A DNA stretch of 64,000 bases from Gemmataceae bacterium (GTDB lineage: Bacteria; Planctomycetota; Planctomycetia; Gemmatales; Gemmataceae), in assembly GCA_035553375.1 (NCBI GenBank), contig DATNCY010000318.1, positions 698 to 64,697 of the forward strand, in the 5' to 3' direction. Of the stretch, positions 48,576-50,351 are shown piece after piece (the first letter of the stretch is position 1; every line of letters starts with the position of its first letter). A model generated the notes under the pieces. It was not told the origin of the DNA, did not search any database, and was given only the letters and a program-made list of their open reading frames with translations. The translations under genes were made by a program, and so were the position numbers.

Positions 48576-50216
48576 ATGTCAAGGACGACGCTGTGTGCAG
48601 TGACCGCCGCTGTGTTGGTGCTGCTTTCCGTGGCCGTTATGGTGGTTCGTCAACAAGTGTTGGGCGACGAGTTGCGCCGCCCGCGTGGGCCGGGCGCCTG
48701 GAAGGTGACGCTGGCCGTGCATGGCACCAGTTTGGGCAATGCCCGCGTTGTGACGGCCATGCCGCTCGACCTGGAGCGCCAGCAGGTTTATAACGACGCC
48801 TATCAAAGCGATCAGCTTTTCAATAAGGCTCCCGAAGCTCGACATCCCGAGCGTCGCTCGGTCATTTGGTCGCAGCGCGGCGGCGCGCCGGATGGTCCCT
48901 TCCGCGCCCGCTGCGAGTTTCATGTCGCCGTCGAGGTTGGCCGGCCCAACGCCCTGATGACGCACACGACGACCGGCCTGTACGCCGCCCCGCGTCCGGG
49001 CGAATATCTCGCCGAGAACGGCTCGGGCACCGACCACGAGATGATTTCCGCGACCGCTCGCCGACTCCTTGCGGACCTGGAAACGCCACAGAATCAGCAT
49101 GATGTTGCCGAGACGCTCTATCGTTTCGTCGCCCAGGACATCAAAAACGATCCGCTGGACGGTCCCTCCGCCACTGCCGCCGAGTGTCTGCAAAACCAGC
49201 GCGGCGACCGCCTGGCCCAGAGTCGATTGTTGCTGGCGCTGTTGCGCAATCGCGGCATCGCCTCGCGCATTGTCACCGGCGTCGCGCTTAGCAAAGGGTC
49301 GGAGCAACGGCCGCATTATTGGGTGGAATCATGGCTGCCCGCCTACGGGCGTTGGCTGCCGATGTGTCCGTTTTATGGCCACTTCGGCCGGGTACCGGCG
49401 ACGTATCTCATCTTCGGTTTCGGCGAAAAGCCGCTGGTGCGCGGCCGGCACGTCAAGGATCTCGACTTCGCCTTCCTCGTCGAACGTCTTCCCGCGCCCG
49501 ATGCGAACGCGGCGGATATTTCATCGATGAAGCGCCTGTTCATGAACCTATCCTTGTTCGCGTTGCCGCCGGCCGAGCGCCGACTCGTCGAGATATTGTT
49601 GCTGTTGCCGATCGCGGCGCTCATCATTTGCATCTTCCGCAACATCATCGGTCTGAGCAGTTTCGGCAGCTTCGCGCCGGCGCTGATCGGTCTGGCCTTC
49701 CACGATTTGCACAGTCTGCCGGGAATTCTCGTGTTCGTGACGATCTTGCTCATCGGCTGGCTAATGCGGCGCGTCCTCGATCACTATCACTTGCTGCAAG
49801 TGCCGCGCATCGCCACGATGTTGACGCTCATCATGATCGTGCTTATCTCGGCGGTGGTAGCCGCCAACGTCTACGGCGCGCCCACGACGCGCTATATCTC
49901 GCTGTTTCCAATGGTTATTCTGTGTGGCATGGTCGAACGCTTCTGGACGTTGGAGACGGAAGACAGCACGAGCGCATCGTTCCGAACGCTGTTTCAGACG
50001 ATGCTGATTTCCACGGTTATTGCCTTGGTGCTGAGCCGCGGCACGATCGCGCAGCACATGTTCCGCTTCCCGGAAACGCTGGGTCTCATTATGGCGGCGC
50101 AGTTGCTTATCGGCCGTTACACCGGCTATCGGCTCATGGAACTGTTCCGCTTCCGCGATTTCCTCAAACCGCCTCAGCAACCGGATCACACCTGGGCCAT
50201 CGACAGCGAACTATAA
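48576..50216 (+). CDS. Inactive transglutaminase-like domain fused to a 7-TM module
   Basis: N-terminal TM helix. Transglutaminase-core-like region RGDRLAQSRLLLALLRNRGIASRIVTG...HYWVESWL with the catalytic Cys position not conserved, then about seven hydrophobic helices. AGAGAGG lies upstream of ATG 48576. Confidence 0.7.
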   Translation: MSRTTLCAVTAAVLVLLSVAVMVVRQQVLGDELRRPRGPGAWKVTLAVHGTSLGNARVVTAMPLDLERQQVYNDAYQSDQLFNKAPEARHPERRSVIWSQRGGAPDGPFRARCEFHVAVEVGRPNALMTHTTTGLYAAPRPGEYLAENGSGTDHEMISATARRLLADLETPQNQHDVAETLYRFVAQDIKNDPLDGPSATAAECLQNQRGDRLAQSRLLLALLRNRGIASRIVTGVALSKGSEQRPHYWVESWLPAYGRWLPMCPFYGHFGRVPATYLIFGFGEKPLVRGRHVKDLDFAFLVERLPAPDANAADISSMKRLFMNLSLFALPPAERRLVEILLLLPIAALIICIFRNIIGLSSFGSFAPALIGLAFHDLHSLPGILVFVTILLIGWLMRRVLDHYHLLQVPRIATMLTLIMIVLISAVVAANVYGAPTTRYISLFPMVILCGMVERFWTLETEDSTSASFRTLFQTMLISTVIALVLSRGTIAQHMFRFPETLGLIMAAQLLIGRYTGYRLMELFRFRDFLKPPQQPDHTWAIDSEL

Positions 50217-50351
50217 AATTTTTCACCACGGAAAGCACGGAAAACACGGAAAAATACAAAAAACGTAATTACAAGAGATGGTGCTTATTTGTTGATATGA
50301 ATTGTTTTTGTATTTTTCCGTGTTTTTCGTGCTTTCCGTGGTGAAAAATTT
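50216..50351. repeat. Periodic-arm hairpin P3: 47-nt arms (one mismatch) built from 9-nt units (CACGGAAAG/CACGGAAAA), AT-rich 42-nt loop
   Basis: AAATTTTTCACCACGGAAAGCACGGAAAACACGGAAAAATACAAAAA (50216-50262) pairs with TTTTTGTATTTTTCCGTGTTTTTCGTGCTTTCCGTGGTGAAAAATTT (50305-50351). Its first base is the last base of the stop codon TAA, and its last base abuts GGAGG. Confidence 0.95.

Follow-up and report, generated by a model that had tools for sequence, protein, structure and literature searches.

A gene-less inverted repeat with arms of 9-nt units in a Gemmataceae operon and its probable kinship with GxxExxY nuclease-fold cassettes

The question raised by this locus is how a long and nearly perfect hairpin came to fill the whole space between two genes of a bacterial operon, and what it may do there. 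The hairpin (the target) lies in a 64-kb stretch of DNA from a member of the Gemmataceae, between a 7TM-transglutaminase gene and an ATP-grasp gene. The whole stretch is referred to as the window, all coordinates without a locus number refer to it, and L-numbers denote retrieved loci used for comparison. We find that the target belongs to a dispersed family of inverted repeats whose arms are built of three tandem 9-nt units with the core CACGRAA, and that such arms recur around genes for GxxExxY proteins. This family and its tie to the GxxExxY nuclease genes are the main interest of the work. The explanation that we favour, with moderate confidence, is that the target is a derivative, lacking an open reading frame (ORF), of a hairpin-flanked GxxExxY cassette, comparable to a MITE (miniature inverted-repeat transposable element), inherited at this site for some while, co-transcribed with its neighbours and probably cut by RNase III.

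The hairpin and its family

A repeat search placed the two arms at 50216-50262 and 50305-50351, each 47 nt long, 98% complementary and 42 nt apart, which is the longest inverted repeat of the whole window. By direct reading the left arm runs AAATTTTTCAC, then CACGGAAAG, CACGGAAAA and CACGGAAAA, then ATACAAAAA. The sole mismatch, G50240 against T50327, is a G·U wobble in the plus-strand RNA. The initial annotation had described arms with one mismatch in 47 positions around a 42-nt AT-rich loop in otherwise GC-rich DNA, filling the gap from the last base of the upstream TAA to the base before GGAGG at 50352, and the search and our reading bear it out on each of these points. The GC fraction is 0.31 in the loop, 0.32 in the element and 0.60 in the window. 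The predicted RNA fold has an energy of -82.6 kcal/mol (z = -12.6), with none of 200 shuffled sequences equally stable. A pattern of two consecutive units occurs in the window only at the target, with four matches against 0.14 expected. The loop contains no ORF and no sigma-70-like promoter. Rfam has no match to the target at the gathering threshold, the single match of the window being a tRNA; at E <= 10 the target draws sub-threshold matches only, mostly to plant and animal microRNA-precursor models with a few weak ones to small RNAs, small nucleolar RNAs and RNase P, and these are generic long-hairpin matches.

The initial annotation had proposed looking for further copies, and the search was productive. 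The pattern CACGRAANNCACGRAANNCACGRAA, three consecutive CACGRAANN units in a form that covers the orthologous variants described below, was scanned against 185,579 species genomes, one per species. It matched at least 120 stretches in many phyla, where by our own estimate about two matches would be expected in random sequence of that size, and the loops of these copies are variable. The matches listed come from the Verrucomicrobiota, Planctomycetota, Acidobacteriota, Gamma-, Beta- and Deltaproteobacteria, Gemmatimonadota, Bacteroidota, Spirochaetia, Chloroflexota and others. Among them, the inverted partner lies downstream in 94 of the 98 strand-hits that have a partner matching at least 20 of 25 bases. 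The layout is therefore a purine-rich arm, a loop and a pyrimidine-rich arm, with loops of 3-285 nt. A typical copy, TTTAACCACGGAAAGCACGGAAAGCACGGAATAA..., is found at L095 6003-6086, on a contig binned as a metagenome-assembled genome of a Methanosarcinaceae archaeon, which represents either spread across domains or a binning error.

Finer regularities emerged from 92 of the listed elements, in which only the core positions were used to choose the partner arm. In 95% of them a C directly precedes the first unit, and in 85 the six units agree at the R position, all having A or all having G. The NN positions are equal between the two arms in 58% of cases, compared with 37% for arms of different elements, and a match at all four tested NN positions is seen in 22% of elements, where 2.5% would be expected. 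Among the matches listed the palindrome reaches 2-11 nt past the units, in sequence that is specific to the copy. The target has the C before its first unit (TTCAC preceding CACGG) and carries its purine-rich arm 5' of the pyrimidine-rich arm. At its R positions five units have G and one (50323-50331) has A, which places it in a minority 'AG' class with 6 of the 92 elements.

Copies lie outside gene calls in 37% of cases, against 7% of random positions, although the gene calls around them are crude and long spurious ORFs are common in GC-rich DNA, so that such overlap tests are noisy. Several genomes hold more than one copy (L053, L069/L070, and L124 with L127). The L124 copy comes from the same assembly as L127 and sits at an unrelated locus, as do the other Planctomycetota copies. 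Loops differ between orthologues and even between the L053 copies, which are 0.7 kb apart. Nested copies were seen at L027, L029, L038, L046, L115 and L133; the inner element is either a GC-rich hairpin resembling repetitive extragenic palindromic (REP) sequences or a second unit-armed hairpin, sometimes of 8-nt CACGAAGA units, and loops appear to be preferred as insertion sites. We found no published description of a CACGRAA hairpin family and no Rfam family for it, and it is apparently undescribed.

In viral contigs the arm pattern is frequent, with the hairpin layout in only 25 of 173 arm matches, which makes this weak evidence of viral carriage. At L266, L271, L249 and L223 (viral) and at L021 and L107 (gut bacterium UMGS1058) unit arrays occur four to six times on one strand without an inverted partner, spaced by about 90-100 nt or by 600-1600 nt. 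These are larger direct repeats, a different arrangement.

GxxExxY genes between the same arms

Clustering of the ORFs from 120 pattern loci revealed a TIGR04256 GxxExxY ORF between or adjoining the arms at five loci in different phyla (E about 1e-40), a link that the initial annotation had not anticipated. Since loci chosen by the pattern carry an ascertainment bias, we drew an unbiased sample of 80 metagenome GxxExxY loci by protein similarity alone, 74 of which were usable. A 9-nt unit array lies within 150 nt of the GxxExxY gene in 65 of the 74, against a background of 0.33 arrays per kb elsewhere in those loci, and the canonical order of arm, gene and inverted arm is present in 35. The distance from the arms to the start and stop codons is usually 0-20 nt. 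Most arms read AACCACGAAANN..., and CGCGAAA and CACAGAA are among the variants.

GxxExxY proteins (TIGR04256, Pfam PDDEXK_3) are about 125 amino acids long and numerous, with at least 8000 candidates at E <= 1e-10, most of them on contigs shorter than 2 kb. A survey of PD-(D/E)XK proteins in 2012 listed the function of the family as unknown (PMC3424549). No solved structure matches them by sequence. A model built from 30 sequences (predicted local distance difference test, pLDDT, 86.9) has a compact PD-(D/E)XK fold, and the D, E and K residues are invariant. Among solved structures the model comes closest to Cas4 SSO0001, lambda exonuclease and RecE-type nucleases, and tRNA-splicing endonucleases.

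Gemmataceae cassettes bring the association close to the target. In L214 (GCA_035315465.1) a GxxExxY gene with AACCACGAAAGACACGAAAAATACGAAAAA and TTTCGTGCATTTCGTGTTTTTCGTGGTT at its flanks has a TPR-like gene on one side and ybeY-recO on the other. In L209, a Gemmataceae metagenome-assembled genome (protein HWG47994.1), the arm reads ATTTCAC-CACGGAAAA-CACGGAAAG-AACGGAAAA-AAGACAA with an exact mirror opposite. These arms align with the target arms over their full length. The alignment, which extends to the arms of L216, runs through the outer TTCAC, which is also present in the orthologous copy of L006 described below, the three units, G-type in L209, and the inner A[GT]ACAA. On this alignment the L209 arms belong to the target's own subfamily. 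The L209 cassette is wedged between two co-directional host genes, as the target is. Each of the five close relatives of L209 that were retrieved has the cassette at that junction, with its cores conserved and its NN positions drifting.

Some cassettes depart from the canonical order. In L109 (4201-4788) and L214 (1117-1612) the arm and gene are followed by a second forward arm, a short loop and the reverse arm, a layout present in 6 of the 74 sampled cassettes; integration of a circle with one arm into a resident hairpin would give this outcome. The arms are not exclusive to GxxExxY genes, since L038 (5093-5433) has a different ORF of 79 amino acids between CACGAAA arms, with a weak DUF4926 match below the Pfam cut-off. 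In L216 the Gemmataceae GxxExxY cassette comes after a sulfotransferase gene, and an Unstab_antitox/ParE_toxin pair (1944-2457) lies immediately upstream of that gene.

The explanation that we favour for the target would run as follows. The family arm is taken to be three tandem 9-bp units of consensus R-A-C immediately before CACGRAANN CACGRAANN CACGRAA, with the purine-rich arm first and the spacer free, and full-length members would hold one GxxExxY gene of about 125 codons between the arms, usually 0-20 nt from each. Such a cassette would behave as a selfish element that comes to rest in the spacers between genes or between cistrons, and its copying would be the work of the nuclease or of a recombination or replication pathway of the host that acts on the hairpin. 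Mobility is suggested by four observations together: the dispersal across phyla, the existence of multiple and of nested copies, turnover at the orthologous site, and a fixed end and arm order. The target would be a copy that has been carried at its operon junction through several Gemmataceae lineages, with its arms kept near-perfect through arm-to-arm co-variation. In the transcript RNase III would cut the 47-bp duplex, separating the cistrons and leaving stem stubs at the new ends. The direction may have been from cassette to solo hairpin or from solo hairpin to one later invaded by a gene.

Several observations weigh against this explanation. No transposition event and no empty donor/target pair was caught, and neither an empty nor a solo allele was found at the L209 junction among the five relatives retrieved; the cassette there is therefore stable over short periods. 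Direct repeats of 2-8 nt next to the copies, as expected of target-site duplications, are at chance level across the family, and the target flanks, GCGAACTATA and GGAGGTCTGA, likewise have no direct duplication. All-against-all clustering of ORFs from the 120 loci found no recurrent transposase family near the copies, the largest recurrent ORF family being an ABC-transporter-like protein at 11 loci. Searches of the solo loops for ORF remnants gave weak matches only, none convincing, so the solo hairpins could be ancestors of the cassettes and not derivatives. The target's own 42-nt loop has no similarity to a GxxExxY ORF and no remnant of one, and the window contains no GxxExxY gene and only one other related copy. 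In ORF-oriented cassettes the arm mismatches comprise 67 G·U and 77 A·C, with no excess of G·U, and selection for RNA pairing is therefore not demonstrated there. Near-perfect arms in diverged orthologues could reflect use of the structure by the host. Finally, hairpins with other 7-8-nt units are found in Gemmataceae as well. Since the genome scan targeted a single unit sequence, the family may represent one section of a wider class of hairpins with unit-built arms. In L003, for example, hairpins at 3354-3478 and 20024-20100 have arms of 7-nt units (AAATCCG x3 and GTGGCGA x3), which makes unit-built arms general in the Gemmataceae lineage, beyond the CACGRAA type.

The operon junction and the alternatives

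Ten orthologous junctions were compared, that of the window and those of nine further loci with an orthologous ATP-grasp gene. Four of the nine have unit-armed hairpins. In L006 the units read CACGGAAAA, CACGGAAGA and CACGGAAAA. In L003 they read CACGAAACA, CACGAAAAA and CACGAAAAA within perfect 41-nt arms. In L133 they read CACGGATCA, CACGGATAA and TACGGATAA, and the loop holds a nested GC-rich REP-like hairpin (about 3830-3990). L128 has 8-nt CACAGAGR units, the type of the second related element of the window (Table 1). These four loci are 82-86% identical to the window in the nucleotide sequence of the neighbouring gene, and their loops are unrelated. In place of the unit-armed hairpin, L002 (the closest relative, with 92% nucleotide identity in the ATP-grasp gene) and L130 have a GC-rich hairpin and L127 has another GC-rich hairpin. 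L004 has the same gene order with a bare 30-nt spacer, and in L132 a different gene is upstream of the ATP-grasp gene. None of the orthologous junctions has a GxxExxY gene. On a tree of the ATP-grasp gene (simple neighbour-joining, without support values) the unit-armed junctions are interleaved with the other states, so the site has undergone repeated turnover.

The initial annotation had considered a very recent MITE-like insertion and had proposed looking for an empty site at this junction in related genomes. The comparison supplied one in the bare spacer of L004, next to relatives with other hairpins. The MITE-like part of the idea stands, in that the inverted repeats are dispersed across phyla and have a defined end, and the orthologous site is variously filled, differently filled or empty. 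The claim that the insertion is very recent is not supported, given the related unit-armed hairpins at the same junction in L006, L003, L133 and L128, the first of them with the same TTCAC flank.

The strongest alternative, which we nevertheless regard as unlikely, is that the hairpin evolved in place to set how strongly the 7TM-transglutaminase and ATP-grasp genes are expressed relative to each other, by way of mRNA processing, end protection or ribosome access, and that its likeness to other copies is secondary. It would account for the exact fit of the element between stop codon and Shine-Dalgarno sequence, for the presence of a long hairpin of some kind at eight of the nine junctions with the target's gene order, for near-perfect arms with changes on both sides in diverged orthologues, and for a single mismatch that is G·U in the sense RNA. 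It does not readily explain why the same arm sequence, end and number of units recur at unrelated loci of many phyla and around GxxExxY genes, or why L004 makes do with a 30-nt spacer and L002, the closest relative, together with L130 and L127, has an unrelated GC-rich hairpin. Long hairpins are moreover common in the window: 26 pairs are listed in its 64 kb, and they fall at about 20 separate sites. An inserted element may later have been put to use by the host.

A very recent insertion, in which the near-perfect arms reflect youth and the elements of the relatives are independent insertions at a hotspot, is in our judgement improbable. With 46 of 47 positions paired the target is among the most perfect copies, in a family where only 22% of listed elements match at all four NN positions; the site has demonstrably been occupied by different types of element, and L002 lacks this one. 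Against this, L006 has the copy-specific outer flank AAATT..TTCAC together with G-type units at the same position and a different loop, which fits shared descent followed by divergence of the loop and so disfavours a very recent arrival. The spread of unit-armed hairpins over the unsupported gene tree of the junction points the same way.

We give equally little credence to a third alternative, that the direct 9-bp repeats act as double-stranded DNA, as operator- or centromere-like sites for a protein (possibly GxxExxY itself), with no hairpin extrusion or RNA folding. This can be judged from the way in which the arms vary. A set of 52 cassettes has arms that agree with each other at the core positions (95-98%) and mismatch at the NN positions in 52% and 28% of cases. 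Conservation of the cores is thus at the level of sequence, with NN free and often unpaired, as binding sites would be. The fixed order of the arms, which pure hairpin formation does not require, suits binding sites as well. However, the arms co-vary beyond their conserved cores. Among 14 Planctomycetota members 87.2% of cells are paired, compared with 78.9% in shuffles (none of 500 as high), with both-side changes in 18 of 38 pairs, and the aberrant third unit of L209 (AACGG) is mirrored in the opposite arm. Perfectly matched arms are nine times above chance, the palindrome continues past the units in copy-specific sequence, and binding sites leave the nesting of copies in loops unexplained. 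Arm matching shows no trend with loop length. Both pairing and sequence matter in the arms, which were either made as exact complements that then decay at the free positions or are corrected against each other. A binding role is compatible with a mobile-element origin and not opposed to it.

That the element partly halts transcription between the genes, as an intrinsic terminator or attenuator, is very improbable. The hairpin is very stable and directly follows a stop codon, and some members, such as that of L052, lie between convergent genes. A terminator would have a GC-rich stem, a short loop and a U-tract. The target has an AT-rich stem base that ends GUGAAAAAUUU and is followed by GGAGG in place of a U-tract, and a 42-nt loop; a consensus scan of 49900-50700 found no terminator-like site; and the ATP-grasp gene has no promoter-like site of its own. 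An artefact of assembly or sequencing, such as a chimeric fold-back, is of negligible probability: some library preparations can create palindromes and contigs of this locus often break at the hairpin, but the independent read-based assembly L001 (Logan SRR6185437) carries the identical sequence from the element's tenth base on, mismatch included, and five more assemblies, which stem from different projects, have related elements at this junction.

We return to the favoured explanation and to what an inherited, transcribed element would do in this operon. The scan just mentioned found no promoter-like site in 49900-50700, and from the sequence we place the element within one transcription unit, presumably transcribed with both genes. 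In the predicted fold the Shine-Dalgarno sequence of the ATP-grasp gene is mostly unpaired. A 47-bp duplex abutting a Shine-Dalgarno sequence is a typical RNase III substrate, and by analogy with the intervening sequences of 23S rRNA the enzyme probably cuts it. An influence on the coupling of the two cistrons through ribosome access, RNase III cleavage or transcript stability, as envisaged in the initial annotation, is plausible on the same analogy, and MITEs that are co-transcribed and change mRNA stability offer a further precedent (PMC3184786). That annotation had also likened the placement of the element to that of another hairpin, P1; this is probably the hairpin at 6017-6102, and the likeness is apt, for it too lies between a stop codon (TAG) and a ribosome-binding site (GGTGAGGAG). 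It has perfect 38-nt arms of four 7-nt units (CCGCTAT/CCGCTGT).

As to the neighbouring genes, the listed TTG start of the upstream gene falls within another hairpin, and the true start may be further downstream. The ATP-grasp homologues are from Gemmataceae (Planctomycetota) according to their sources. A further hairpin (51383-51441) directly follows the ATP-grasp gene. Many contigs with close homologues of this gene are only 1.0-1.2 kb long (P0001, P0003, P0013, P0022, P0024, P0041 and others), about the gene and its flanks, which suggests that the assemblies of many relatives break at the hairpins on both sides.

Other repeats of the window include a family of GC-rich REP-like hairpins with arms CCAGCCCGCAGCGCCAGCAAGGG, present in at least seven copies, one of which sits between the C25-like and 7TM-transglutaminase genes of the same operon. 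A second GC-rich type, CCGACAAGCCCAGAGCGCCAGCGACGGG, is found at 14999-15063, with a related copy at 41111-41199. At 55095-55300 heptamer arrays (AATGCAC x4.6 opposite ATTCTGC x4.4) form an imperfect palindrome with about one mismatch per unit; GCGGACA-type repeats follow, which have the unit ACAGCGG in common with the hairpin at 6017-6102. A 66-nt unit is repeated 2.4 times at 1887-2038, with a GC-rich hairpin inside each unit. The second related element overlaps the stop codon of a minus-strand gene (22176..23687).

Table 1. Coordinates of the target hairpin, its flanking genes and related repeats in the window
Feature	Position	Strand	Remark
Complete 136-nt inverted repeat; member of the CACGRAA 3x9-nt family without an ORF	50216..50351	none	
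Left arm, outer extension AAATTTTTCAC	50216..50226	+	final C is the conserved -1 position of the family
Left arm, core of 9-nt units CACGGAAAG, CACGGAAAA, CACGGAAAA	50227..50253	+	mirrored at 50314-50340
Left arm, inner extension ATACAAAAA	50254..50262	+	A[TG]ACAAA motif of the Gemmatales subfamily
Loop, 42 nt, 31% GC	50263..50304	+	sequence differs in orthologous copies
Right arm, reverse complement of left arm except T50327 against G50240	50305..50351	+	
Upstream gene, 7TM_transglut and Transglut_core	48528..50216	+	TAA 50214-50216; last stop base is the element's first base
GGAGG Shine-Dalgarno (50352-50356), 7-nt spacer, ATG (50364)	50352..50366	+	begins one base past the helix
Downstream gene, ATPgrasp_ST; named 'alpha-L-glutamate ligase-like' by sources	50364..51335	+	
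Second related element: 8-nt units CACAGAGR (3 left, 2 right), ATACAAAA-like inner motif, 73-nt loop	22063..22183	none	
GC-rich REP-like hairpins, arms CCAGCCCGCAGCGCCAGCAAGGG	6901-6959, 13939-13995, 20612-20668, 29306-29353, 31887-31937, 36151-36205, 48495-48548		

Comparison with known systems

Among bacterial MITEs, the Correia/NEMIS elements of Neisseria, ERIC and RUP resemble the target in being about 100-160 bp long with terminal inverted repeats, in having many dispersed intergenic copies, often 3' of genes and co-transcribed, and in being non-autonomous relatives of larger elements. ERIC-type MITEs have target duplications and a TA motif at both ends, and some co-transcribed MITEs affect mRNA stability (PMC3184786). 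Neither the duplication nor the terminal TA is present in the CACGRAA family. Further, the inverted repeats of these MITEs are not made of tandem units, their copies share internal sequence whereas CACGRAA loops are unrelated, their partners are DDE transposases in contrast to a 125-aa PD-(D/E)XK protein, and each is confined to a narrow group of organisms. We therefore considered and rejected a classical DDE MITE, for which the terminal inverted repeats and small size fit and the target duplication and common internal sequence are missing; it is the lack of duplications that sets the family apart from classical MITEs.

REP sequences are short GC-rich imperfect palindromes, each family of which is tied to the RAYT of its own genome. 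REPs and REPINs, with their IS200/IS605-like TnpA (RAYT), share with the target an existence as intergenic hairpins without target duplications, near stop codons and in operons, and one small gene proposed as mobiliser. REP-like GC-rich hairpins coexist with the target in the window and replace it at the same junction in relatives. The CACGRAA core differs in being common across phyla, with arms of three 9-nt repeats. A REP/REPIN-RAYT system was rejected, as the target has 32% GC and there is no recurrent RAYT- or transposase-like neighbour within the 120 loci.

The short tandemly repeated repetitive (STRR) heptamers of cyanobacteria are short intergenic units repeated a few times, to which, so far as we know, no function has been assigned. 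The likeness to the target lies in intergenic units of 7-9 nt in few repeats, and the window too has plain heptamer arrays (55095-55300); STRRs differ in being direct repeats and not paired inverted arms, and we know of no gene associated with them. Integron attC sites were also rejected: by reading, the target ends, AAATTTTTCAC and GTGAAAAATTT, are not RYYYAAC/GTTRRRY, and ends within the family vary (AAC, GTC, GCC, TGCC).

The best-documented analogue is the intervening sequence (IVS) of 23S rRNA. That of Coxiella has a stem of 28-bp terminal inverted repeats with three tandem heptamers (GACAGAT x3) in its 5' arm; its loop contains a small ORF, and RNase III cuts it out with no harm done to the host transcript (PMC4990558). 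The IVSs of Coxiella, Leptospira and Salmonella parallel the target family in having a long stem, about three tandem units per 5' arm, and a small loop ORF in some cases and none in others, and their sporadic distribution likewise suggests a selfish element. They differ in position, lying in helix 25 or 45 of 23S rRNA while the target lies between two protein genes, in their ORF, which encodes the S23p four-helix bundle and not GxxExxY, and in the sequence of their heptamer units. Cleavage by RNase III is proven for the IVS; for the target a predicted 47-bp duplex is compatible with it.

The analogy leads to a wider proposal, which we advance tentatively and regard as doubtful. GxxExxY proteins may be the nucleases of a new, duplication-free class of mobile cassettes with three inverted 9-bp repeats as ends, which together with gene-less derivatives would populate the spacers of most bacterial phyla and some viruses, would be tolerated because their arms pair in the transcript and are taken out by RNase III, and would be the protein-gene counterpart of the 23S rRNA IVS, with a common origin. 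If true, a very large protein family would gain a testable role and a nucleic-acid partner, the CACGRAA repeats, and a common cause of contig breaks in soil and freshwater bacteria, and of their so far unexplained intergenic hairpins, would be identified. The two operon genes studied here might then be on separate processed mRNAs only in strains that have the element, and natural variants exist. The cassettes would also provide a comparison set for the origin of rRNA intervening sequences, in which small ORFs are likewise held in stems whose arms are tandem units.

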